The notes below the pieces were generated by a model that was not told the DNA's origin, made no database searches, and saw nothing but the letters and a program-made list of their open reading frames with translations. A stretch of 64,000 bases of DNA, from contig JAHDBA010000011.1 of NCBI GenBank assembly GCA_020630615.1, forward strand, positions 2,321-66,320, written 5' to 3'. This document shows, piece by piece, positions 16,119 through 36,706 of the stretch. The position numbers were made by a program, and so were the translations under genes. Source of the stretch: Myxococcota bacterium. GTDB taxonomy: Bacteria > Myxococcota > UBA727 > JAHDBA01. Position 1 is the first letter of the stretch, and the number at the start of each line of letters is the position of its first letter.

Positions 16119-17531
16119 ATGTTAAGTGGGATTGGCGTTGCGAGAGACTTGATACAAATCAAAATGGTTGTCATGAACCTCAACGGTGACGTGCGGCTGG
16201 CCTATGCTGACAAGGATGGCAGTGAGCGGACCTGGCTTGCGCGGGTTGGTGTGAGCAAGAAGTCAGATAATTGGGCACTTCGTGTCGGTGATGAAATCTG
16301 CTTCAGCCTCAAAGACGGCGTTATGAAGGGTCACAGTGTGGATGCCCGTATCGTTGCTGTCACGACTCAGAGGGGTTTCGAGGGGAGCGTAGTTCACGAC
16401 TTGAACGAAGTTGCCTTTCGTCCGGGACATCGCGCAGAGCTCTTGATTGCGGATGTGGCCTGGCTCGAACGTCGGAGTCAAGCGCGACCTGAAGATGCTC
16501 GCTTGGCATTTGACCCTTTTGCAGAGCTCGACGATGACAAGACGTTGATGGGGGATAATGTTCTCGCCGCGCTTCGGGAGGGTGCCAAAGGCGATAGTTC
16601 GGCGCCGAATTCGAAGGGGGCATCAGCAAGCAGCAAGCGACGAGAAGAGCAAAAGACGAAGTCTCTCGAAATCACACGCGAGGCTCGACTGAGTCAACTT
16701 CAGCAGAGTCAATCACAGGATGGGGCGTTCGAAGAAATTGACGACGAGAGTGTGCATCCTGATATTTCTGAGACGAACGATGTGGTGACGACTGAAGCGG
16801 TAGACGCAAGCCAGAAGCTCTTTTCTGACCTGCCGCTTGAGCCCTCTGGTGTTCTTGGAAATCTGAGTCAGGTCTCAGTGGTCGAGATTCTTCAGGGGCT
16901 TGAGTTGAGTCAAAAAGTTGCACGCATCGATATCTCAAGTGAGCATGGCCTTCAAGGAACGCTTTACGTTGATAAAGCAGTACTGGTGTCTGCATATATA
17001 AAAGGCCGATCGTTGAGCTCGTATCTACATCGTATTCACCCCGCGCGTCAGCGAGAACTTCAAGACCACAACCAAAAAGGGCCGGGTCGACAAGGCCGCT
17101 TTGCATTCGAGGGCAAGTACGCTTTTTATCTGGCGCAAGCGCTTCAGGTTGGCACGTATCGAATTCGTTTTGGTGTGCAAGACAACGAACCCAATATCTT
17201 AAAGCCCTTTTCGTTTTTGATGTTGGATATGCTGCGAGAAGTGGACGAAGCAGGAAAGTGCAATGAGCAAACAAAGAGTGCCCAGCTCGAAGACGAACTC
17301 AGTGAAAAATTTAGGGAAGAGTTCAGTGAAGACACTCGGACAAACCTACGCTTGCCCACACCATCCCTTCTTGCCCAAAGTGTTGCCGAAGAGGACGCCG
17401 TAGAGACACGACTCCCGTCGGATGCACAACATGCAGACTTTGCAGAGCAGAAGACAGCGATCCTCGGTGACCGAGCGACGATATTGTCGGCGCTGAAGAA
17501 CGCGAAGCTTCAGGACGACGGTGACGAGTAA
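16119..17531 (+). CDS. Hypothetical protein with a possible DUF4388/PATAN-like segment.
   Basis: The 470-aa ORF contains VSVVEILQGLELSQKVARIDISSEHGLQGTLYVDKAVLVSA, which resembles DUF4388 of myxobacterial-type proteins. Domain assignment is by resemblance only. Confidence 0.4.
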   Translation: MLSGIGVARDLIQIKMVVMNLNGDVRLAYADKDGSERTWLARVGVSKKSDNWALRVGDEICFSLKDGVMKGHSVDARIVAVTTQRGFEGSVVHDLNEVAFRPGHRAELLIADVAWLERRSQARPEDARLAFDPFAELDDDKTLMGDNVLAALREGAKGDSSAPNSKGASASSKRREEQKTKSLEITREARLSQLQQSQSQDGAFEEIDDESVHPDISETNDVVTTEAVDASQKLFSDLPLEPSGVLGNLSQVSVVEILQGLELSQKVARIDISSEHGLQGTLYVDKAVLVSAYIKGRSLSSYLHRIHPARQRELQDHNQKGPGRQGRFAFEGKYAFYLAQALQVGTYRIRFGVQDNEPNILKPFSFLMLDMLREVDEAGKCNEQTKSAQLEDELSEKFREEFSEDTRTNLRLPTPSLLAQSVAEEDAVETRLPSDAQHADFAEQKTAILGDRATILSALKNAKLQDDGDE

Positions 17532-22404: not shown

Positions 22405-22480
22405 TTGGCTCCGCAGGAGGGACTCGAACCCCCGACCTGGTGGTTAACAGCCACTCGCTCTACCAACTGAGCTACTGCGG
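22405..22480 (-). tRNA. tRNA-Asn (anticodon GUU).
   Basis: The minus strand reads TCCGCAG-TA-GCTC-AGTTGGTA-GAGC-G-AGTGG-CTGTTAA-CCACC-AGGTC-GGGGG-TTCGAGT-CCCTC-CTGCGGA-G-CCA. This folds as a cloverleaf with GUU at positions 34-36. Confidence 0.9.
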
Positions 22481-23198
22481 ACCGTGCCCCTTTTGTTTCA
22501 GAATGGAGGAAGAGTGTCAAGTGTTCTAATGCAGAAAGGAGCTAAAAATTGTGAGCGCTATAGTTTTGGCCTTGCTGAGTTGGAATTGAACTACACCAAC
22601 AAGCGAATACGTTGTGGAGATTTTTTGGGTGCGCGTTCGATTTCACCCCGCGCCTCGATATCGGTCTTAATGTAGCGTGTGTAGTTTGTGAGACGCCCCT
22701 TCGGGAAGGGACATCGGACTCCAACTCTATTTGGACAAAAGCGACAACATCTTTAAGGAGGATGCCATTTGTGACGCTTTCGTTGTTGTCCATGTATCTA
22801 AGGATAGCGTCACGAACGAGCAGATATTGTTCAGCAGAGACGGTGAAAGCTTCTGAATAGTTGGGTCGGTTTGCGTTAAGAATTAGCGCGCGACCTTGTT
22901 GTTATTTCTCCTCCACTCGGGAAATAACATCGACAGGAAGTACGGAACACGCAGCCTTAGAACAGCCATTTTTAGGCAGGGGGTACTTAACATTTCGCAT
23001 GCCACTGCGATGTCCATGTCGGGGAAGTGTTACCAGCGGACTCACTTTGGAAAGATACTTCTAGCATGTGAACATATCCCACCCAGGTCCATCATGCGAA
23101 ACATTAGGAAATCAGGCTTCTGGACCAAATAAAAGCTTCGGGCCTGGTACATCTGTTCAATATCGAGTATCGAAGAGGTTGTTTGTGAGGAGTCCATC

Positions 23199-23489
23199 AT
23201 GGGTGAAGCGATAACGGAAATTGTAAGTCGCGAGATGACCTTTTGGAATATGGTCGGGCATAGCGGGTATTTGCTACTCTTTATCTCTTTCTCTGTGAGT
23301 CGACTCTCCGTCTTACGAATCTTAACGATTAGCGCAAACTGCTTTGTCTTCGCTCATTTTTTCTGGGGCTATCAGGATGGAAGCTTTCAATGGACTCATG
23401 TCAAATGGGTCCCCGTAATGTGGGCAGTCATCTATAACATAGTCAATGTTTTGAAGCTTATCCAGGAGTCAAAAAAGTCAGAGCAATGA
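23199..23489 (+). CDS. Small hypothetical membrane protein (96 aa, about 3 TM). Paralog of the next gene.
   Basis: SD GAGGAG lies upstream. Hydrophobic segments present. Shared motifs with the 23617 ORF are LRILTISANCFVFAHFFW versus LRVITLIGLAANIAFFWCAL, and WAVIYNIVNVLKL versus WNSLYFAVNVYQL. Confidence 0.5.
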   Translation: MGEAITEIVSREMTFWNMVGHSGYLLLFISFSVSRLSVLRILTISANCFVFAHFFWGYQDGSFQWTHVKWVPVMWAVIYNIVNVLKLIQESKKSEQ

Positions 23490-23616
23490 TTCTGATGCCG
23501 GGTGTGCTCTCAGCTTGAAGCGACGCTCTCAGGCTTGACGGAAAAGATAGGTTAGGTATATTTCGCGCAAATTGATTTGCTTGGTTGAGACCGTGAGGTC
23601 TTAAAGGAGTGGATGG

Positions 23617-23898
23617 ATGACGCAGATGAGCCTTGGTACGATCCCGCTAACAACAATCTTGTGCAATCTTGCCGGAGCAATGTTTTTATTGGCGTATGTG
23701 GTGCGCCAGATGTGGCTACTGAGGGTGATTACCCTAATCGGCCTTGCTGCCAATATTGCTTTCTTTTGGTGTGCCCTCGGGACGAGTGAGATAAGCCCCA
23801 TCGTGTGGAACAGTCTCTATTTTGCGGTCAATGTCTATCAGCTTGCCTGTATCAGACATAAGCAGAATCATGAGACAAATTCGCTTTCCATATCTTGA
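23617..23898 (+). CDS. Small hypothetical membrane protein (93 aa, about 3 TM). Paralog of the previous gene.
   Basis: SD AGGAG lies upstream. Frame chosen by paralogy with the 23199 ORF. Confidence 0.5.
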   Translation: MTQMSLGTIPLTTILCNLAGAMFLLAYVVRQMWLLRVITLIGLAANIAFFWCALGTSEISPIVWNSLYFAVNVYQLACIRHKQNHETNSLSIS

Positions 23899-23952: not shown

Positions 23953-25764
23953 ATGAAGGTTGTGAAAGGTCTAGGGTTCTCGGGCATTGGGAGGCAGGAC
24001 TCTGAGAAGCGTGAAGTCTCTACTACATCACAAAGTGCAGACTCTCTCACCTCTACAAATGTACACCATCCGGATGAAGATTCGTTCGGTGCTGAACGAA
24101 AGAACGGGCCACATGGTATCGACTCCGTAAAGCCCAATGAAGGTGCGCCTGCAGAGCGCGGGACGTCACCCGCTGCGAGCGAGTTGTTACGGCAGATTCA
24201 ATATTCTCGTTCGACATCGGAGCATCGTGCGCTCATAAGTGCTCGTTATGATTTTGATGAAGTGATGGGGGACGACTCGAGAGACATGGTATCACGCAAG
24301 GTCGCAATCCTTGACCAAATTGCTCTTGATGGGCGCAAAGGCCGGCTTAGCGAAGAAGTTTTCTATGCAGCACTTCAATGGGTCAGCGAATGTATGGAGG
24401 GTGAGTTCGCCTCTTTCGAGCATGAGCTTGCACAGGCGATGGCAGTACTCGTCACAAGCGCGACCCTGGAGCAAGACATCACTGCAATTGCAGAGCTTGG
24501 CGCAAAGCTGGATCTCAATTTCTACGGTGAAGATCTTGCACGAGCAATCTTTGAACATCCCAATGTGGATGCGCTGCATGTTGCGGCAGAGTTCCCGAGA
24601 TATGTGATGGCGATGCTCAATGAAAATGCAAGAGGAGCGAGCTTTGAACTTGAGAGTCGATGGTTTGAAAATGGGGAGGCGAGTGTTGTTCCTTTTGGAG
24701 GCAGCCGCCAGCCAGATTCAAGTGCGGCGCTGATCATGGCATGCGTTCGGCAGGTGCAAACACAAGGACCCGCGACGGAACGTTATATTGAGATTGTGAG
24801 TGGCCTTTTGAAGTCGCTAACGCCATCAGAACGTAGCGCTTTCTTTAGGCGTTTTGGGTCAGGGGAAGTCATCGAACGCTTGCGTCATCGCTGGACCTAT
24901 CAAGAAGGTGCAGAACGTCTCAACCCTTGGCCTTTAGTGAGTCTTGAGCGTATGAAAGGTGAGGTCCCAAACATGGTGGCCCTTATCAGTGAGCTCCTGG
25001 GGAAGAATATTATGTTGATGGAGAAGATGCTTTCGTTGCCAGACAATCGCACCTTCTTGGAGCGTGAATTCCCCCGCGAGATGCTTCGCTATCGAAGCGT
25101 CAAGAAGGAGCTTTACGCAATGCGCATTACCAACTTTGATTTGATGCCTTTCTCGCATGCACCAGAACGCGTGATCGAGATGTGGGACGATGAAAGCGCT
25201 CGAGTCGATGAACGCCCAATCGCTGTGGTCGTTCAAAGCCCAGTGGATGCCAATCTTGCAATGGATGCCAAGGGCGATTTTGAGCAACTCTACAACAATT
25301 ACAGAGTTCTTTTTACACAGGCCAGAAATGAAGAAGAGCTTGAAGATGCAATGCGACATTTTGATGCCGTGGTCTGCGATACTAAAATTCAACTGATGGT
25401 TATTGCGGGACACGGAAGCGTAGAGAGTATTGCCCTCGGGGCTGATGACCCCCGTTACGATGATAACGCCAATGAATCTGAGCTTTTAGACTTAAGTGAC
25501 TCCGAGATGTTTAAAGAGATGTTCAGACATCGTTTGGCGCCGGGGGCTGATATTGTTTTGAAAGCGTGCAGTACGGGTGCTGAAAATCAGGAGGGCAACC
25601 TCGCTCAGCGGATTGCAGAGGCAGTACCTCAAGGCAGGGTTCATGCTTTTCCGGATGATAACAACAGTACACTTCTTCTGGATCCGGAAGGAACATTCGA
25701 ATCTCTGAAGTTGCGAGATAGCGATGAAGGACAAGAGGTCATTGTTTTCGAGCCTACCGAGTAG
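23953..25764 (+). CDS. Large acidic hypothetical protein (603 aa) with a C-terminal caspase/CHAT-like (clan CD peptidase-like) domain.
   Basis: No signal peptide. C-terminal ~250 aa are paralogous to the next gene. The putative catalytic dyad is LMVIAGHGS (His at nt 25411-25413) and DIVLKACSTGAE (Cys at nt 25567-25569), 52 residues apart. Confidence 0.55.
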   Translation: MKVVKGLGFSGIGRQDSEKREVSTTSQSADSLTSTNVHHPDEDSFGAERKNGPHGIDSVKPNEGAPAERGTSPAASELLRQIQYSRSTSEHRALISARYDFDEVMGDDSRDMVSRKVAILDQIALDGRKGRLSEEVFYAALQWVSECMEGEFASFEHELAQAMAVLVTSATLEQDITAIAELGAKLDLNFYGEDLARAIFEHPNVDALHVAAEFPRYVMAMLNENARGASFELESRWFENGEASVVPFGGSRQPDSSAALIMACVRQVQTQGPATERYIEIVSGLLKSLTPSERSAFFRRFGSGEVIERLRHRWTYQEGAERLNPWPLVSLERMKGEVPNMVALISELLGKNIMLMEKMLSLPDNRTFLEREFPREMLRYRSVKKELYAMRITNFDLMPFSHAPERVIEMWDDESARVDERPIAVVVQSPVDANLAMDAKGDFEQLYNNYRVLFTQARNEEELEDAMRHFDAVVCDTKIQLMVIAGHGSVESIALGADDPRYDDNANESELLDLSDSEMFKEMFRHRLAPGADIVLKACSTGAENQEGNLAQRIAEAVPQGRVHAFPDDNNSTLLLDPEGTFESLKLRDSDEGQEVIVFEPTE

Positions 25765-25812: not shown

Positions 25813-28452
25813 TTGTCTGACGAAGCCACACATCCGTTACACTGGTTTATGTCGACTAAAATCGGAAGAGGACAAAACCCAATTCTTCAGTCACCAAAGC
25901 CTCGGAAGAATGTAGAGGGGCAAAAGCTCGAGAACACAATTGATGGTGCATGCCCGATTGGCGCTGACGAAGCGGTCAGCGATTCGTTTGATGCTTGCTT
26001 TGAAGCAACGAGTCTTGAAGCATCGAACACGAACAATTTGGAGACACAGCGAGTGCAGAAGCAAGCGATGCCCAGTCGAATACCGGACGCGCTGCATGAC
26101 GCATTGACCGACAAGTCTACCACGAAGCTTGAAAGCGTTGTATTGAAATCTGAACTAAGCACTTCGGTTTGGGATGAAAGAATCGATTATGCACTTTCAC
26201 CTCTATCCGGTGAAGAGGCATCATCGAAGGTCTATTTCAATAAGCTCTGTGACGCGAATCAAGTTGGTATTTTGCTCGCAACAGATGAAGGCCGCGACCA
26301 GCTCGCAGTGAGTCTCGTTGAACTTCGCTTGAATGACGTTTCGCAATACGAAGAAGTCAGTCTTTTCATTGCGACATCGTTCACGAGCACGGAGTTGCTG
26401 CAAGTTGTTGGCGAAATCGATGTGCACTCTTTTCAGCTTTTATCGTTGGACACGGTCAGGGATGTTGTTGTGCTGAGCGAGTTCACGCCAAAGATCTTCT
26501 TCCCAATATTGGAGTCTCGTTTGTTAGAACTTGGAGTGCCGAGGGAGCTTACCTCACAGGTCGTAGATGAGGGTTTAATCGCGCTGGGTGAAGAGGGGAT
26601 TGAAGGGTGGATGAACGCGCTTGGACCGGTCTTTGACCGCCAAAGGGTTTTTGATGCCTGGATGAATGTTTGGACAGACATTGTTGAGCGGGAGAACGAT
26701 GCGCACGCTCACAACGATGCGCGTGAAATTGTACTGACGCACACTTTGGCGCTGGGCGAACGCAGCGAACTACGAGGCCTTTATCGAGGCGACCCGAGTC
26801 GCTTCGACGCACTAGCTCGGATCGTTGAATCGTTAGCAGAGGGGGGCATCGAAGAAAGTCTCGCAAACCTAGCAAAACATATGGACGCGGAGCCTCATCT
26901 TAGGAATGTTCTAAGTGAACTGGTTGCCCGTCGTTTCGAAGGGGACATTTTTGACGCGATCGCGAGTAAGCGTCATAGCCCTGATCTTGAGTCTGTTTTG
27001 CAGTGGTTGGAAAGTTCACCGAACAAGATATCTTGTTTTCAGAGGGTTTTTGACCAAGTTTTGTTAACAACCACCGACGCTACCCTTCGTGCACGGTTGC
27101 TAGAACTTGCAAAACATTCTTCGCCCGATGAACAAAACGCATTGTATCGAACTATTGTTTTGGGGGATGAGACGTTACCCGACTCGTGTTTGGAAGGGTT
27201 GGGACCGCTCCTCGATACATACTTGTTGCGACAAGACGGCATTGTGGATGTTGATTTGCTGCGCAGCACGTATTCAAATCACAACTTTTTAGTCACATAT
27301 CATATTTACCGTCGTGATGACTTTGCTTTGGACTTGGCGCGTAGTCTCGCGGGTTATGATGACAACATTGAAACTTGGACGAAGTCTGAAGGGCTTGATG
27401 AACATCAAGAAACATCAATCTCTACCTTTCTCGCAGGGCTAAGTCGTATCCGCAGAGTGGGGAAAAAACAAGGTTTCGGTGAAGATGCAATCAACCGCCT
27501 ATTGCAGCTGTATTGGGACTCTGAGATTTGTGACGTGCCAGAAACTGACATGCTTGACCATGGGCTTTCTGTCTTTGGTGATTACGAAGGGCTTGACCTA
27601 AAAAAAGCGTACTTTGCAGACGTTTGGACAAATCGTGTGCTTGACGACGGTGACCTTGACTCCGTGGCCAATGCACTTGATGCAAACATCATGCTGATGT
27701 CGAAGATGCTGACGCGTGCAGGAAACCGTGAATGGTTAGGGGCGAATTACCCTGAAGAGTTGACACGTTATGAGACTTTGAAAGCGGAACTCGCAGAGAT
27801 TGGCATCGTAGATTACGACATCATACCTTTTAAGAATGAACCCGAGAAAATTTTGGAGGGATGGAAGGCCCAGAAGGATGAACGCCCCGTGGCGATTGTC
27901 ATACAAAGCCCTGAAGATTGGAACTTGGGTTTTTACCATGGCATTGCAGAGCATTACCCCAAACTCTATGAATCCCATCGTGTTCTTTTTGCACATGCTC
28001 GCGGCGAAGAGGATGTCGCGAACATTGGGGCGAGGGCTCATGGGTTTTTGGGCGAGTCATCGATTGATGTTTTGGTGCTGGCGGGTCATGGTTCTCAAAA
28101 CATGATTAGTTTTGGCGCAAAGGACCCTCGTTTCTCAGGCGACAAGGCGGGGCTTGCGCATCTTGATTCTGATGATGACTCGCTGCTTGAAGCTTCGTTT
28201 GCGAAACTCTTGAACGCAGACTCGGATATTGTTCTCTATGCGTGTAGCAATGGTGCAGAAAAAGAGAGTCAGTCGAATTTGGCAAAGGTTGTCGCCTCAT
28301 GTGTTGGGCAAAGTCGCGTTCACGCTTTGCCAGACCCGAACAATGCTTCTTTCACTTTTGATGAACACGGTCGTTTTCGAGGTCTCAAACTGGCAAACAC
28401 CAACGAAGGGCAGGTCCCGGTCGTGATTGAGCCAGACGCGTTAATTCGGTGA
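25813..28452 (+). CDS. Large acidic hypothetical protein (879 aa) with a C-terminal caspase/CHAT-like domain. Paralog of the previous gene.
   Basis: Starts 48 nt after the previous stop. The track start is TTG at 25813; the first ATG is at 25849. The N-terminus is helical, repeat-like and unrelated to the 603-aa protein. The shared C-terminal domain has LVLAGHGSQ (His at 28087-28089) and DIVLYACSNGAE (Cys at 28243-28245), 52 residues apart. Confidence 0.55.
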   Translation: MSDEATHPLHWFMSTKIGRGQNPILQSPKPRKNVEGQKLENTIDGACPIGADEAVSDSFDACFEATSLEASNTNNLETQRVQKQAMPSRIPDALHDALTDKSTTKLESVVLKSELSTSVWDERIDYALSPLSGEEASSKVYFNKLCDANQVGILLATDEGRDQLAVSLVELRLNDVSQYEEVSLFIATSFTSTELLQVVGEIDVHSFQLLSLDTVRDVVVLSEFTPKIFFPILESRLLELGVPRELTSQVVDEGLIALGEEGIEGWMNALGPVFDRQRVFDAWMNVWTDIVERENDAHAHNDAREIVLTHTLALGERSELRGLYRGDPSRFDALARIVESLAEGGIEESLANLAKHMDAEPHLRNVLSELVARRFEGDIFDAIASKRHSPDLESVLQWLESSPNKISCFQRVFDQVLLTTTDATLRARLLELAKHSSPDEQNALYRTIVLGDETLPDSCLEGLGPLLDTYLLRQDGIVDVDLLRSTYSNHNFLVTYHIYRRDDFALDLARSLAGYDDNIETWTKSEGLDEHQETSISTFLAGLSRIRRVGKKQGFGEDAINRLLQLYWDSEICDVPETDMLDHGLSVFGDYEGLDLKKAYFADVWTNRVLDDGDLDSVANALDANIMLMSKMLTRAGNREWLGANYPEELTRYETLKAELAEIGIVDYDIIPFKNEPEKILEGWKAQKDERPVAIVIQSPEDWNLGFYHGIAEHYPKLYESHRVLFAHARGEEDVANIGARAHGFLGESSIDVLVLAGHGSQNMISFGAKDPRFSGDKAGLAHLDSDDDSLLEASFAKLLNADSDIVLYACSNGAEKESQSNLAKVVASCVGQSRVHALPDPNNASFTFDEHGRFRGLKLANTNEGQVPVVIEPDALIR

Positions 28453-28526: not shown

Positions 28527-28602
28527 TGGTGGAGCTAGGCGGGATCGAACCGCCGACCTCCTGCATGCCATGCAGGCGCTCTCCCAGCTGAGCTATAGCC
28601 CC
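28527..28602 (-). tRNA. tRNA-Ala (anticodon GGC).
   Basis: The minus strand reads GGGGCTA-TA-GCTC-AGCTGGGA-GAGC-G-CCTGC-ATGGCAT-GCAGG-AGGTC-GGCGG-TTCGATC-CCGCC-TAGCTCC-A-CCA. GGC sits at positions 34-36. The G3:U70 alanine identity pair is present. Confidence 0.9.
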
Positions 28603-28628: not shown

Positions 28629-30134
28629 ATGGTTCTGTTAAAGAAAACTCAGTCGTTTGTAAAGGGCGGATTTATGCTTCGATGGATTCTAACAGTACTT
28701 TGTATCACTTTCATGTTTGGATGTGATGGCATGACAAAGGGGTGTGCGGCACCCGATTCGATTGCCAGTCGCAGGGCGGACTCAAGTCATGTCTATAAAG
28801 TTGTTGGGCTCGAGCAAAACGCTCAGCCCGCGCCGGGTAACGACCAGGTCTATGGCACCGGATGGTACCCGAATATCGAGGTGGATGACACGGGTGGCAT
28901 TCATCTTGCGTGGACCAATGCTGAGTATGGCGATGTCATGTATGCGCGATGGGACCCAGAGGCACACCGTACGCGCGATGTGCAGGTTGTCGAACGTGAG
29001 GGCGCTGCGGGTTCGTTCTTGAAGCTTGCCCTCGGCCCGAAGGGCGAACCGATCTTAGCTTATTACAACCAAACAACCCACCAACTTCGTCTTGCGCACC
29101 GACCAAAAGATTGGCGCACAAAAGCGCTTGAATCCAAGTTGGACAAAGTGGAAAACGAAAGTGTGGATTTTGAGATTCAGCAACGAGGCAATGCTCAGAA
29201 GAAAGAAACCCGACAGTTATCAAAAAAGTCATCCAATACGTCGAAAGTGAAAAAGGCAAAGGGGAAACCTTCAGGCACGAATGCCGTCGAATCTTTTCTT
29301 GAAGCACAAAAGAACGCGAGGGAGGTAAAGTCGGATCATGAGCCACCAATGGGTGAAGGATGGCTTGGTGAAAATGTGGCCTATGGAGAATTTGTCGGCA
29401 TAGGAACCTCGTTGGTCATCGACTCGGAGGGCAGCCCTCATATTCTTTTTTATCACCCGGACGCTAAACATGGCGATCGTCTTCGTTACGCACGTCGACA
29501 CAGAAATATGGAAGGCTTCTCAGAAGAACACCTCGGGAGATTTAAGGTCTTAACGCTGGATGAGGACCTTGGTGCATCGCACAAAATACAAACCGGCTTT
29601 TGGGTTGGCAGTGATGAGGTGATCGCAAGCTACGCGGCGTGGCAAGGCATTAACATTGAGCTGCGTCTTGCGATTGTGGATCTCAAGAGTGATAGCGTTC
29701 AAGTTATTGAACCCAAGCGTAAGAAAGAAGTGGATGGTTACACGAGCACTCTATCGGTGCACGATAACACGATTGACGTGTACTCTGTGGTCAGTGGCGC
29801 GAGCGCACTCGCACACTTTCAGTTGAATAGAGAAAACCCCGTTATCCCAATGGAGCGTAAGACGCTGCTGTCGAGGCCAGGGCCCACCTCGATCACGCGA
29901 CTTGCGAAGGGTGAAACCTTCATCTTAACTTGGGGGCATGGCGACACTCGAAACGAAGGGCCAGGACTTTGGCTTCTTAAAAGTACCTCTTACAATGCTC
30001 CTCTAGAGAAAGTTGTTTTGGATGAAGGTAAACTCGAGGAGCCCTGGCTTGATACGGCATCCCGCGATGGTGTGTTATGGGCCGTCTGGACTTCGCCGGA
30101 TATGCACTCAATGAAGCTCTATCGGCACAAGTAA
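28629..30134 (+). CDS. Secreted (possibly lipo-) protein with beta-propeller-like repeats.
   Basis: Signal peptide MLRWILTVLCITFMFGCDG. Repeats are GIHLAWTNAEYGDVMYARW, GEPILAYYNQTTHQLRLAHR, GSPHILFYHPDAKHGDRLRYARR and VLWAVWTSPDMHSMKLYRH. These resemble the repeat in the 6500..8557 protein. Confidence 0.55.
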   Translation: MVLLKKTQSFVKGGFMLRWILTVLCITFMFGCDGMTKGCAAPDSIASRRADSSHVYKVVGLEQNAQPAPGNDQVYGTGWYPNIEVDDTGGIHLAWTNAEYGDVMYARWDPEAHRTRDVQVVEREGAAGSFLKLALGPKGEPILAYYNQTTHQLRLAHRPKDWRTKALESKLDKVENESVDFEIQQRGNAQKKETRQLSKKSSNTSKVKKAKGKPSGTNAVESFLEAQKNAREVKSDHEPPMGEGWLGENVAYGEFVGIGTSLVIDSEGSPHILFYHPDAKHGDRLRYARRHRNMEGFSEEHLGRFKVLTLDEDLGASHKIQTGFWVGSDEVIASYAAWQGINIELRLAIVDLKSDSVQVIEPKRKKEVDGYTSTLSVHDNTIDVYSVVSGASALAHFQLNRENPVIPMERKTLLSRPGPTSITRLAKGETFILTWGHGDTRNEGPGLWLLKSTSYNAPLEKVVLDEGKLEEPWLDTASRDGVLWAVWTSPDMHSMKLYRHK

Positions 30135-32830: not shown

Positions 32831-33532
32831 GTGAGGGTTCGAATGACGCCAACGATACTTATTGCAGATGATGATCCAGAGATTCGCGCGGTTATTCAAT
32901 ATGCGTTTAGACGAGAAGGCTGGGAGATGCTGCTTGCGTCAGACGGTGAAGAAGCGTTGGGACTCTACGCAGAAGAGTCGCCCGATGTTTTGGTGTTGGA
33001 TATTAATATGCCCAAAGTTGATGGTCTCGAGGTGTGTCGGAATGTTCGCTCGCGTTCAGAGACCCCTGTGCTTTTTGTTTCTTCGCGCGATGAGGAACTT
33101 GATAAAATTCTGGGACTGGAACTTGGTGGTGATGATTACATTACAAAGCCCTTTAGTCCGCGTGAACTTGTCGCTCGCGTGAAGGCCATATTGCGGCGTA
33201 TTGCACATAAGCCCCAGGGAGCACTTGAGCTCCATCGGATTGATGTCGGTCTCTTGGTGCTCGACTTGGATACCTTTGAGGTACAATGGGATGGCAACGA
33301 TGTGACTCTCACCGTGACGGAGTTCGGACTCTTAAAGCTTTTCGCTGAAAACAATCTCAAGGTCGTGACCCGAGAGGATATTCAAAATCATGTTTACGAT
33401 GGTCTGCAGGTGAGCAGCCGTACGGTTGACAGTCACATTCGACGTTTGCGCCAAAAGCTCAATCGAGCGGGGGCGGAAAATATTCTCGAAACGCTTCACG
33501 CAAAGGGTTTTCGTTTGCGGGTAGGCGCATAG
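32831..33532 (+). CDS. creB: OmpR-family response regulator (CreB-like).
   Basis: Receiver ILIADDDPEIR...VLVLDINMPKVDGLEV and a winged-helix C-terminal domain. It sits first in a response regulator, histidine kinase, CreD module. Likely start is the ATG at 32843 (MTPTIL). Confidence 0.8.
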   Translation: MRVRMTPTILIADDDPEIRAVIQYAFRREGWEMLLASDGEEALGLYAEESPDVLVLDINMPKVDGLEVCRNVRSRSETPVLFVSSRDEELDKILGLELGGDDYITKPFSPRELVARVKAILRRIAHKPQGALELHRIDVGLLVLDLDTFEVQWDGNDVTLTVTEFGLLKLFAENNLKVVTREDIQNHVYDGLQVSSRTVDSHIRRLRQKLNRAGAENILETLHAKGFRLRVGA

Positions 33533-33534
33533 CG

Positions 33535-35130
33535 ATGAACAAGGCTCTTCGGCGCAGCAGTCGCGTTCATCAATGGCCAAAGGTTCGAACACTGGTTGTC
33601 GTAATCGCGGTGCTTGCTTTGAGTGCACCCTGGGGGGTACTCACTTTCTTTCGCGTGTTTGACACGACAGTGATGCGGCAAACCGAACGCGAACTCTTAG
33701 CCCAAAGTGCAATGCTTGTTGCGGCGTATCAAAACGAGTACGTGCGTATTCATCCCTCAAACGAAAGCGCTATTGAAGAATGGAGAGCACGCAGCTTCAG
33801 CGATACCCGTATTGACCCGGCAGTGGTCAACCTGGATGTTTTTGCGCATGACACACTTCCGCCGCGCCCCTATGTCACCAAGATGATGAATGCGCATACT
33901 GAGGCGATGTCTATTGGAGAGTCCTTAACTCCGGTTGTGCGTGAGGCGCGAGCGTTAACACTCGCGAGTCTGAAAATCCTTGACAGTCGAGGTGTACAGG
34001 TTGCGGGCTCTCCAAGTGAGGCTGGTAAGTATTTTGGTCAAATTGAGGAAGTGCGCTTAGCGCTTCAGGGCACTTTGAGTGCTCGTTTGAGAAAGCGTGT
34101 GTCAGACGAGCCCATTCCCAAGCTAAGCTCACTGAGTAGAGGAGCCCAAGTGCGACTCTTTATTGCGATGCCGATCCCTCACCCCTTTAAAGAAGAAGTT
34201 TTGGGTGTCGTTTATTCGAGCCGTACGCCGAAAAGGGTCGTTGAAGTCTTGTATGACTTTCGCACACAACTGGGACTCGCATTGGGCCTTCTGATGCTCG
34301 GTGGAGTTCTGGTTCTTTTGCTCCTTTATCTTTTTCTGACATATCCGATGCAATCTCTGGCCAAGCGCCTCGAGAGCTATGAGTCGAACCCGATGCAGTT
34401 GCCGACTTCGCAACGATTTCTAGGGACAGAAGAACTCGCAATGATCGAGAGCTCGTTTCAAAATCTTGCAATGCAATTGACGGGGCGCCTCGACAATCTT
34501 GAACGCTTCGCGGGTCACGTCTCGCACGAGTTCAAGACACCTTTGACGAGCATGCGCGGCGCATTGGAATATCTTGACGATGGGGACCTCTCTGCGGAAG
34601 AGGAGAGTCAGTTCCTCGCAACCCTATCAAAAGGTGTCTCACGCCTTGAACGACTGGTGCATCGTTTTCTTGAGCTTGCTCGCGCCGATTCCGTGCGCCA
34701 TCATAAGGGTGTCTGTGACGTGGTTGAGGTTGCACGCGATGTGGGGCATGAGCTTGGGCTTCCGATTGAGTTGGAGTCACCGAAGAGGGCCTACCGGGTT
34801 GCGATTGCACGTGAAGACCTGCGAACAGTTTTCAAAAATCTTTTCTCGAACAGCTCAGAGCATGGTGCATCGAAGGTGACACTGATTTTCAGTCAGGACG
34901 CCGGTCGCTTCGTTGTGAAGTGTTGTGACAATGGGAATGGTTTTCACTCCGGAGATATCCAAAAGCTCTTTACTCCCTTCTTTACAGGGCGTCGAGAGAA
35001 AGGTGGGACAGGACTTGGCCTGCCCATAGTAAAGAGCTTGCTTGAGCGCTCGGGTGCATCGATTCAGGCTGTCGAGAGTGAACATGGAGCTTGTTTTGAG
35101 CTCGAGATTGTAGCGGCCCGTCTTGAATGA
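33535..35130 (+). CDS. creC: Sensor histidine kinase (CreC-like).
   Basis: Two TM segments. H-box HVSHEFKTPLTSMRG. G2 box GGTGLGLPIVKSL. Starts 3 nt after the response regulator stop. Confidence 0.8.
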   Translation: MNKALRRSSRVHQWPKVRTLVVVIAVLALSAPWGVLTFFRVFDTTVMRQTERELLAQSAMLVAAYQNEYVRIHPSNESAIEEWRARSFSDTRIDPAVVNLDVFAHDTLPPRPYVTKMMNAHTEAMSIGESLTPVVREARALTLASLKILDSRGVQVAGSPSEAGKYFGQIEEVRLALQGTLSARLRKRVSDEPIPKLSSLSRGAQVRLFIAMPIPHPFKEEVLGVVYSSRTPKRVVEVLYDFRTQLGLALGLLMLGGVLVLLLLYLFLTYPMQSLAKRLESYESNPMQLPTSQRFLGTEELAMIESSFQNLAMQLTGRLDNLERFAGHVSHEFKTPLTSMRGALEYLDDGDLSAEEESQFLATLSKGVSRLERLVHRFLELARADSVRHHKGVCDVVEVARDVGHELGLPIELESPKRAYRVAIAREDLRTVFKNLFSNSSEHGASKVTLIFSQDAGRFVVKCCDNGNGFHSGDIQKLFTPFFTGRREKGGTGLGLPIVKSLLERSGASIQAVESEHGACFELEIVAARLE

Positions 35131-35287
35131 CACTAGAGTGAACCTTCAGTGCGCTAGCTTTGTGGACCAATTCGTGCTGCGACCTTCTACAATGGTGCAA
35201 TTTGTGTGCAAACTTTACGCACTTTTTGCGCACCAAGAACATCTTTGAGAACTTCAGAGCATACTGAACTCTGCAAAGGAGTTTTTT

Positions 35288-36706
35288 ATGCAAACAACAA
35301 AGAGAAAGAAACGGAATTTAGGTTTTCGGAAGTCGATTATTGTCACAAAGGTGCTGCCACTTAGTGTTTTGGCTGTCATGTGTTGGGTTGCAACCTGCAG
35401 TGTCGGTGGAGTGGTCAGCGATCGAAGTGAACAAGCCACCTATGCTGAGCAACGAATTAAAGAGAGTTGGGCACCGGTTCTCAACGGAATGAATCCAGTA
35501 CTGGTGCTTGGGGAACGAAGAACGAGAGAAATTGAGAAAACGCTCAAAAATGAAAAAGGTAAATTTTACACGGAACGTCAAGAGGAAGTTTATGTGGTCG
35601 ACTCTACGCTGCTGAGCCATGTGGCCGATACACAAATCATCATTGACGTTGAAAAACGGCAACTTGGACTCTTTTTACAACCTGTGTACACAGCGCAAAT
35701 CAATGTGACGGGTGAGATTGAAATGCCGGACATCGAGGGCGAGCTCTACAAGCTCAAGTTACATTTACCATTAAGCAGTATTGAAGGGCTGCAAATCGCT
35801 AATGTTGCGGTGAACAATAATAGCATGTCAGTTGCAACCGATGCAGTTGGACTCGTGAGCGATATTACTTTTGAAGAGGCCCGGCACAAGACAATAGAGT
35901 ACGCAATCTCATTGGTAGTTCGAGGTTCAGAAAGGATTGCTTGGGACCCCATTGGCAAAGAAGGTCAACTTGAGATCTCAGGAAATTGGCCGCATCCAAG
36001 CTTTGCAGGACAAGGCTTGCCGAGTAGTAGAAAAGTGACATCGGAGTTGTTCTCTGCGTCCTGGCAATCATCGATTCTGTCGACAACGCTACAAATGAAG
36101 AGTGAAATGTCGGTTGCTACATTATTATCGTCGAGTCGCATGTTTGGAGTTGGCTTGCAGAATGGTGTCGATGTCTACACAAAGTTTTATCGAGTTGTTG
36201 AATATGGGATTCTTTTGATTCTCGTACTCTTTTGTACGCTCTTTGGTTTTGAGGTTGTGATGAAAGAGCGTCTGCACTTAATGAACTATCTTCTTATGGG
36301 AGTGAGTCTGGTTGTGTTCTTGCTTCTGGTCGTATCGTGTTCTGAACATGTTGGGTTTACGACAGCTTATGGTGGTGCTGCCTTTGCGCTTTGCGCATTG
36401 AACGGCTTCTATGCTTCTGGGTTTATCGAGCAGAGGCGTAACCGCTTTGGCTTGATCGTGGCGCTCGGAGGGTCGATGGCTGCGATCTTTGGTGTCGTGA
36501 ACTCAGAAGATCACGCACTCTTAAGTGGTTCGCTCTTGCTCTTTGCGCTCTTGTCTGTGGTCATGATTGCGACACGTAAACTCAAGTGGGATGAGCTGGC
36601 TATAGCTGGGGTGAGCGATGAAGCGCACAATGGTTTGGTGACTTCAGTCGCAATGCCGGGTCTGGCACTCGATGCATCGAAGACGCGTCTTGAAGAAAGC
36701 CCGTAA
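35288..36706 (+). CDS. creD: Inner-membrane protein CreD (cell envelope integrity protein CreD family).
   Basis: N-terminal TM segment. Conserved SGNWPHPSFAGQGLP block (E. coli CreD has SNWPHPSFLGDFLP). C-terminal segment LHLMNYLLMGVSLVVFLLLVVSCSEHVGFTTAY matches CreD HPMQYLLVGLSLVMFYLLLLALSEHIGFTVAW, recalled from memory. Confidence 0.75.
   Translation: MQTTKRKKRNLGFRKSIIVTKVLPLSVLAVMCWVATCSVGGVVSDRSEQATYAEQRIKESWAPVLNGMNPVLVLGERRTREIEKTLKNEKGKFYTERQEEVYVVDSTLLSHVADTQIIIDVEKRQLGLFLQPVYTAQINVTGEIEMPDIEGELYKLKLHLPLSSIEGLQIANVAVNNNSMSVATDAVGLVSDITFEEARHKTIEYAISLVVRGSERIAWDPIGKEGQLEISGNWPHPSFAGQGLPSSRKVTSELFSASWQSSILSTTLQMKSEMSVATLLSSSRMFGVGLQNGVDVYTKFYRVVEYGILLILVLFCTLFGFEVVMKERLHLMNYLLMGVSLVVFLLLVVSCSEHVGFTTAYGGAAFALCALNGFYASGFIEQRRNRFGLIVALGGSMAAIFGVVNSEDHALLSGSLLLFALLSVVMIATRKLKWDELAIAGVSDEAHNGLVTSVAMPGLALDASKTRLEESP

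Follow-up and report, generated by a model that had tools for sequence, protein, structure and literature searches.

Two small Myxococcota membrane proteins resembling the Popeye three-helix module without its cyclic-nucleotide sensor

The animal Popeye proteins POPDC1/BVES, POPDC2, and POPDC3 are cAMP effector proteins with three transmembrane (TM) segments and an extracellular N-terminus, and mutations in POPDC cause heart and muscle disease. To our knowledge, no biochemical activity has been assigned to the POPDC membrane domain, either in animals or in bacteria. The animal proteins are membrane-tethered dimers (PMC6952887). Reviews treat POPDC as metazoan and give soluble CAP/CRP proteins as the closest bacterial relatives, with membrane-bound bacterial homologues left unmentioned (PMC6952887, PMC4821176). 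Bacterial proteins matching the same Pfam model (PF04831, "POPDC1-3") are already catalogued as a functionally uncharacterised family. Here, we investigated two neighboring open reading frames (ORFs) of 96 and 93 amino acids, ORF1 and ORF2, in a 64,000-nucleotide stretch of a Myxococcota bacterium (assembly GCA_020630615.1, contig JAHDBA010000011.1, positions 2,321 to 66,320), called the window below. Judged by sequence, both are sensor-less, domain-minimal Popeye-type variants and not Popeye proteins in the full sense, and it is this variant that is new.

ORF1 and ORF2 have the three TM segments of the animal proteins, and the presence of two paralogues in one genome is reminiscent of animal POPDC paralogue sets. 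Unlike animal POPDC, they have neither the Popeye/cAMP-binding domain nor the C-terminal tail, and the link to animals runs via the Pfam model only. The closest described architecture is that of the full-length bacterial Popeye-like proteins (210–290 amino acids), which have three helices at the N-terminus followed by a cyclic nucleoside monophosphate (cNMP)-binding domain (PF00027, cNMP_binding). Pycsar effectors of the PycTM type follow the same logic of a membrane module joined to a cyclic-nucleotide sensor, whereas ORF1 and ORF2 have no sensor of any kind. The cNMP domains of the full-length relatives match the Pycsar cNMP domains of PADLOC with E values of 1e-14 to 1e-5. We rejected a Pycsar or defense identity for the three-helix module itself, as no PADLOC model matched it and no cyclase was seen in the contexts examined or among the scanned neighbors in the window.

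Other small membrane proteins were also considered. SemiSWEETs of the MtN3 clan are bacterial, about 90 amino acids long, and have three TM segments, like ORF1 and ORF2. SemiSWEETs act as dimers and have a conserved Trp and Asn within the membrane. This candidate was rejected, as a Foldseek comparison with 4x5n gave E = 3.3 and a TM-score of 0.41, and one Imp-YgjV hit was the only MtN3-clan Pfam match at E ≤ 0.01. That hit came from a single family member and was weak (E = 0.001), and hhalign against Escherichia coli YgjV returned a probability of 0.5%, so YgjV was set aside as well. The sole Protein Data Bank (PDB) match of the family profile, UreI, had an E value of 0.78 and was rejected.

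Homology of ORF1 and ORF2 to the Popeye membrane module

Both ORFs start with ATG at the positions and with the sizes given by an earlier reading of the letters alone (the sequence-only reading), and each has its own Shine-Dalgarno (SD)-like site, as that reading had also noted (Table 1). ORF1 is present as a called gene in an NCBI-derived protein collection. The direct similarity between the two proteins is weak, with a BLASTP E value of 0.004 and 26% identity over a gapped alignment of 65 residues. A word-index search of 5.8 billion proteins with each ORF as query returned only the query itself. An exhaustive HMMER search of 1.84 billion representatives with a profile built from ORF1 and ORF2 found 31 proteins at E < 1e-3, including P0003 (4e-18) and P0005 (1e-9), many of them 210–290 amino acids long and matched at their N-termini. 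We then scored both ORFs against an independent hidden Markov model (HMM) made from 25 relatives, from which ORF1, ORF2, and their two orthologues were excluded. ORF1 scored 54.2 bits and ORF2 73.2 bits, and the best of 1000 shuffles per ORF reached 11 bits (ORF1 maximum 10.8), with reversed sequences below 0. Therefore, ORF1 and ORF2 share homology with one another as well as with a wider family. The earlier view that they are true paralogues and not spurious ORFs stands on these profile scores, the pairwise signal by itself being weak.

In the family alignment, ORF1 and ORF2 align gap-free through TM1, TM2, and TM3. Four columns are invariant in both the 29-sequence and the 121-sequence alignments: a Leu-Arg pair that opens TM2, plus one Trp and one Asn within TM3. 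These residues are L39, R40, W75, and N83 in ORF1 and L35, R36, W64, and N72 in ORF2. The sequence-only reading had pointed to two shared motifs. One of them, W..(I/L)Y..VNV..L, lines up in register between the two ORFs and holds the invariant Trp and Asn. The other, LR(I/V)(L/I)T(I/L)..AN.., is borne out in its LR part, which is in register and holds the invariant Leu and Arg, but its "..AN.." part is out of register and coincidental, with A46-N47 of ORF1 pairing with G42-L43 of ORF2 in the ungapped alignment.

The family is recognizable from its members. The long relatives score 45–63 bits against PF04831 (gathering score 28.1), and the alignment covers the three-TM region. When the three-TM segments were isolated, 28 of 29 matched PF04831 at E ≤ 0.01, with a best E value of 2.7e-11 and ORF1 as the sole exception. 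A second search with the family alignment brought in 546 further proteins, nearly all of them already annotated as PF04831, and some are named "Popeye protein conserved region" by JGI. We are therefore highly confident of the family assignment alone, that is, that ORF1 and ORF2 belong to the membrane module of bacterial Popeye-like proteins, as judged from profile scores and the relatives' own Pfam matches. This supersedes the earlier statement that no family could be recognized.

The sensor is absent from both genes. Pfam gave no PF00027 match in ORF1 or ORF2, and when the C-terminal domains of the relatives were used as a profile, no cNMP-like sequence appeared in any frame of the window or of the sequences L001, L002, L007, and L008. 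There is also no room for such a domain, as the next gene follows 127 nt after ORF1 and 54 nt after ORF2. Compared to the full-length bacterial proteins, ORF1 and ORF2 have the homologous N-terminal module with the same invariant residues, spacing, and implied N-out/C-in orientation, but are without the conserved ERRP linker and the entire cyclic-nucleotide-binding domain. ORF1 furthermore has a 7-residue insertion in the TM2-TM3 loop, which is predicted to be periplasmic, and no longer has the R-D of the TM1-TM2 loop. In ORF2, the His that begins TM1 is lost. The ORF1 insertion is the only gap between the two proteins across TM1 to TM3.

By Kyte-Doolittle hydropathy, both ORFs have three hydrophobic segments, placed in ORF1 at residues ~19–34, ~37–57, and ~68–88. 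An AlphaFold model of ORF2, computed from the 121-sequence alignment, has helices at residues 11–28, 32–53, and 59–90 with a mean predicted local distance difference test (pLDDT) score of 71. The two approaches agree with the three-TM architecture proposed earlier. Basic residues cluster in the TM1-TM2 loop (two Arg per protein) and in the C-terminal tail of both proteins, which extends 8–17 residues beyond TM3, and the N-terminus and TM2-TM3 loop are neutral or acidic. Because of this charge pattern, and because the cNMP domain of full-length relatives has to be cytoplasmic, we infer that ORF1 and ORF2 probably lie in the inner membrane in an N-out, C-in orientation.

The short form and its chromosomal setting in other genomes

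Among the genome contigs searched, the only close relatives of ORF1 and ORF2 are P0003 and P0005, both from one metagenome-assembled genome (MAG), Myxococcota bacterium isolate MAG-51 (GCA_020627505.1). P0003 is the orthologue of ORF1 (83 amino acids, 54% identity, 60% in the core), and P0005 is the orthologue of ORF2 (82 amino acids, 42% identity, 47% in the core). Both end at their own stop codons with no cNMP sequence nearby. The short form is thereby kept in a related Myxococcota genome, the kind of conservation that the sequence-only reading had asked about. No close relatives of ORF1 or ORF2 were found in metagenome contigs or viral contigs. Differences per codon position between each ORF and its orthologue follow the order third, first, second, at 0.59, 0.37, and 0.18 for ORF1 and 0.66, 0.42, and 0.36 for ORF2, in comparisons where synonymous sites are saturated. 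Therefore, divergence follows a coding pattern in both ORFs.

Short PF04831 entries in the databases should not be taken at face value, as many are artefacts. In three long-read metagenome contigs from ENA (L004–L006), the short PF04831 genes are frameshifted full-length genes. Neighboring genes in these contigs, MFS_1 and MoCoBD among them, show the same splitting. Two other stand-alone genes, P0007 and P0029, are genuine, and both lie in contigs with many short co-oriented ORFs. L007, which carries P0007, is the end of a 102.6-kb contig whose neighboring genes match PHROG families (alkylated DNA repair, phrog_421, and polynucleotide kinase), a setting which suggests that the three-TM module also occurs in phages as sensor-less copies. 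See Table 1 for the positions of all features.

ORF1 and ORF2 had been described as a tandem duplication heading an island operon. Their core identity is 19% (13 of 68 positions), under the family median of ~28%, and in a neighbor-joining tree each groups with its own MAG orthologue and not with the other ORF. Because of this low identity, and because each is closer to its own orthologue, the two appear to be ancient paralogues that are adjacent here, and the tandem duplication is withdrawn as a recent event. The two MAG orthologues occupy separate contigs. That of ORF1 has the same tRNA-Asn at a distance of 1.6 kb, with the relative orientation kept, and is followed after 14 nt by aroA (EPSP synthase) and then aroC, with no large proteins there. 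This arrangement suggests co-transcription of the ORF1 orthologue with aromatic amino-acid biosynthesis genes. Neither aroA nor aroC was detected within the 64-kb window. The contig with the ORF2 orthologue ends 9 nt after that gene.

The four-gene stretch that starts with ORF1 sits between tRNA-Asn and tRNA-Ala. It has a GC content of 0.486, compared to 0.502 for the window, and its GC content at third codon positions (GC3) is that of the flanking housekeeping genes. No att-like repeats were found at the stretch between the tRNAs, none of the four ORFs matched an integrase or anything phage-like in Pfam, NCBIfam, PADLOC, or PHROGs, and Rfam detected only the two tRNAs there. Since composition, repeats, and gene content show no sign of one, the stretch does not look like a mobile island, contrary to the earlier label. 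The interval of ~717 nt that separates tRNA-Asn from ORF1 contains no convincing ORF, and Rfam matched nothing in it. The corresponding interval of the MAG has an Exo_endo_phos gene and a 79-amino-acid lipoprotein-like gene.

Table 1. Positions of features in the window and in related sequences (aa, amino acids; window numbering unless a contig is named)
Feature	Position	Strand	Description
tRNA-Asn(GTT)	22406–22481	-	Linkage to ORF1-type gene kept in the Myxococcota MAG
tRNA-Asn to ORF1 interval	22482–23198		
SD-like GAGGAG	23187–23192	+	6 nt before ORF1 ATG; read from sequence
ORF1	23199–23489	+	96 aa, ATG start; putative stand-alone Popeye-type three-helix membrane protein
Sigma-70-like promoter match	23535–23562	+	TTGACG-16-TATATT (10/12), in ORF1-ORF2 gap; consensus match only
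SD-like AAGGAG	23604–23609	+	7 nt before ORF2 ATG; read from sequence
ORF2	23617–23898	+	93 aa, ATG start; putative stand-alone Popeye-type three-helix membrane protein
603-aa protein	23953–25764	+	C-terminal caspase-like domain of ~260 aa (plausible); weak DUF4347 match
879-aa paralogue	25813–28452	+	C-terminal caspase-like domain (plausible), common to 603-aa protein
Terminator-like site	28474		Just after 879-aa ORF
tRNA-Ala(GGC)	28527–28602	-	Right-hand boundary of four-gene stretch
470-aa protein	16119–17531		DUF4388 domain
501-aa ORF	28629–30134		Right after tRNA-Ala
CreBC/CreD-like cluster	32831–36706		Response regulator, histidine kinase, CreD-family protein
tRNA-Asn and ORF1 orthologue region, MAG	L001 8366–8441, 10001–11583		Relative orientation as in window
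P0007	L007 2899–3144		81 aa, genuine stand-alone Popeye-type three-TM gene
P0029	L008 6001–6234		77 aa, genuine stand-alone Popeye-type three-TM gene
Frameshifted PF04831 gene	L004 5001–5727		cNMP-binding domain continues just downstream in another frame
Frameshifted PF04831 gene	L005 1009–1655		cNMP-binding domain continues just downstream in another frame
Frameshifted PF04831 gene	L006 5001–5644		cNMP-binding domain continues just downstream in another frame

The caspase-like neighbors and rival explanations

ORF1 and ORF2 lie directly upstream of two genes for large paralogous proteins of 603 and 879 amino acids, an upstream position and common orientation that had been noted from the sequence. 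The gaps separating the four genes measure 127, 54, and 48 nt. The large proteins have a C-terminal domain of ~260 residues in common at 40% identity, with the motifs AGHGS and (K/Y)ACS(T/N)GAE. The N-terminal regions show no relationship to one another, and neither has a match. In Pfam, both show only a weak DUF4347 match (E ~ 0.03) at the same place and match neither CHAT nor Peptidase_C14, and neither protein has a match in NCBIfam, PADLOC, PHROGs, or, by sequence, the PDB. An AlphaFold model built from two sequences was poor, with a pLDDT of 52.6. The best Foldseek matches of this low-confidence model are caspase-11, caspase-1, caspase-4, the SAVED-CHAT filament, and MALT1, at E values of 9e-6 to 1e-3 and TM-scores of 0.34–0.38. 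The earlier description of these proteins as CHAT-like is therefore plausible, given the dyad-like GHGS...ACS.GAE motif and the caspase and CHAT fold matches, but with a model of such low confidence the CHAT-like or caspase-like identity is not established. Homologues of the large proteins were absent from genome contigs (searched with the 879-amino-acid protein), metagenome contigs (domain alignment), and plasmids (tblastn).

The 127-nt gap between ORF1 and ORF2 contains a sigma-70-like promoter match, and a terminator-like site lies just after the 879-amino-acid ORF, with none between ORF2 and the 603-amino-acid ORF. These sites are consensus matches and are no commoner than in shuffles, the region having 4 promoter-like sites against 5.4 expected. 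RNA folding in the ORF1-ORF2 spacer and downstream of the 879-amino-acid ORF did not exceed that of shuffles either (z = -0.56 and +0.73). The promoter match may serve ORF2 and the two large genes separately, and together with the terminator-like site would fit a unit apart from ORF1. The sequence-only reading had all four genes in one operon. A conserved functional unit with the CHAT-like genes is not what we observe, as the ORF1 orthologue precedes aroA-aroC and none of nine inspected family contexts has a caspase-like or CHAT-like neighbor. The link to the caspase-like genes is thus one of adjacency in a single genome, which is not evidence of a shared mechanism.

Of the rival explanations, we gave most weight to one in which ORF1 and ORF2, or at least ORF2, partner the two caspase-like proteins in one operon, either recruiting the proteases as their membrane anchor or receptor, or acting as a membrane effector that proteolytic cleavage would switch, in analogy to the protease-controlled membrane effectors of bacterial defense. 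The gene order described above is what this would predict, including the single terminator-like site after the last gene, and the large proteins, judged by reading their N-termini, lack both a signal peptide and a TM segment. The MAG contig ends too soon after the ORF2 orthologue for its downstream neighbor to be visible, so the MAG speaks to ORF1, where it contradicts the partnership. The nine family contexts and the failure of PADLOC to match any of the four proteins also argue against it, the caspase assignment comes from the poor model, and the collections searched held no homologues of the large proteins that would show co-occurrence. We consider this partnership unlikely, yet the strongest of the rivals. 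An immunity role, in which ORF1 and ORF2 guard the producer against the two large proteins as secreted toxins, draws on the same neighbors. Small membrane proteins do sit here beside large, polymorphic-looking paralogues with variable N-termini and a common C-terminal domain, and a type VI secretion system (T6SS) effector complex (9qpe) is among the fold matches, at rank 23 with E = 2e-3. None of the four proteins matches a secretion-system, toxin, or immunity family in Pfam, NCBIfam, or PADLOC, however, and with an ORF1 orthologue that has no adjacent large protein, in a family that is otherwise a sensor-coupled membrane module, such a role is very improbable.

The proteins could also be holin-like or phage-derived, acting in lysis or superinfection exclusion. 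In size (93–96 amino acids), three TM segments, predicted N-out/C-in orientation, and charged C-terminal tail they resemble class I holins such as lambda S, and the two stand-alone relatives in contigs of short co-oriented ORFs, one with PHROG-matching neighbors, point the same way. Unlike class I holins, they have no family match and no lysis-cassette neighbors, the neighbors being tRNA genes and the caspase-like proteins. Pfam and PHROGs gave no holin match (PHROGs only at E > 0.02), tblastn was blank against 50,697 phage genomes and IMG/VR, and no endolysin, integrase, or phage gene was matched beside ORF1 and ORF2 in the window. P0007 had no matches among viral contigs, and neither P0007 nor ORF2 had any among the INPHARED phages. 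The position of ORF1 is chromosomal and kept by tRNA-Asn and aroA in the MAG, and most family members carry a fused cNMP sensor and lie in housekeeping-type contexts. A holin or phage origin is therefore improbable, if a little less so than an immunity role, and none of the holin, immunity, and effector roles suggested earlier found a supporting match in Pfam, PHROGs, or PADLOC. The last rival, that the ORFs are chance reading frames or decayed remnants of full-length three-TM plus cNMP genes, is prompted by the many short PF04831 entries in the databases, since all three that we examined (L004–L006) are truncated or frameshifted full-length genes. Here it is close to refuted: both ORFs score 54 and 73 bits and have good SD sites, equally short orthologues end at their own stop codons in a second genome, the 127- and 54-nt gaps are too small for a cNMP remnant and none was found in any frame, and divergence follows the coding pattern of codon positions.

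Further features of the window lie outside this stretch. An OmpR-type response regulator (233 amino acids) and a histidine kinase (531 amino acids), both recognized by reading their translations, precede a CreD-family inner-membrane protein (Pfam E = 4e-87) in a CreBC/CreD-like cluster. The 501-amino-acid ORF right after tRNA-Ala reads as lipoprotein-like, with an N-terminal hydrophobic segment followed by Cys, and has a weak BNR_4 match (E = 0.058). Its exact sequence is absent from the protein collection, and its start is probably called differently there. The 470-amino-acid protein has a DUF4388 domain (E = 1e-8). DUF4388 occurs widely in Myxococcota-type genomes, in keeping with a Myxococcota MAG as the sole close relative.

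Proposed role and significance

We favor, with somewhat better than even confidence, an explanation in which ORF1 and ORF2 are both translated genes that diverged long ago, each consisting of only the three-helix membrane module of PF04831 proteins, the counterparts in bacteria of animal Popeye proteins, and acting as a small membrane-embedded subunit. Its firmest parts, on the sequence evidence, are the homology to the module, the retention of the invariant residues, the absence of the sensor, and the conservation of the short form in a second genome. The proteins would insert into the inner membrane N-out, C-in, and by analogy with animal POPDC would work as small membrane subunits, most likely as homo- or heterodimers. 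They would perform the activity of the membrane module free of cyclic-nucleotide control, either constitutively or under another partner. ORF1 would be an ordinary chromosomal gene tied to the tRNA-Asn neighborhood, and ORF2 may share a transcript, started at its own promoter, with the two caspase-like genes, as their adjacency in one genome allows.

Several observations weigh against this explanation. ORF2 matches PF04831 with E = 0.0019 and 18.7 bits, under the gathering score, and ORF1 has no direct Pfam match at E ≤ 1. The PF04831 model has 140 positions, of which ORF1 and ORF2 can span only ~4–76, and the TM-only proteins P0003, P0005, and P0007, scanned at full length, likewise score only 18–22 bits. 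The relatives in the independent profile were found via the ORF1+ORF2 profile, which makes that test partly circular, and the circularity is broken because the relatives match Pfam by themselves. The dimerization and topology of ORF1 and ORF2 are predictions, and for a functionally uncharacterised bacterial family the mechanism stays generic. Finally, the short gaps and common orientation could reflect real coupling with the caspase-like genes.

A bolder version may also be entertained, as a long shot that we rate below the simpler partnership discussed above. An ORF1-ORF2 heterodimer would dock or control the two orphan caspase-like proteases at the inner membrane, with the module autonomous in the absence of a sensor. 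This would be an undescribed membrane-protease system, possibly conflict-related because other sensor-less copies sit in phage-like contigs, and if true it would offer a simple bacterial handle on how the POPDC membrane domain acts.

For annotation, the two genes move from "hypothetical protein, no family" to a defined family, and caution is needed before a stretch of four genes is called a coherent island operon from adjacency. For the family as a whole, the sensor-less versions, because they are conserved in two genomes and present in phage-like contigs, indicate that the three-helix module is probably a self-sufficient functional unit. Sensor-less proteins of 80–96 amino acids are minimal material for structural and genetic work and may provide a minimal model of the Popeye membrane domain.

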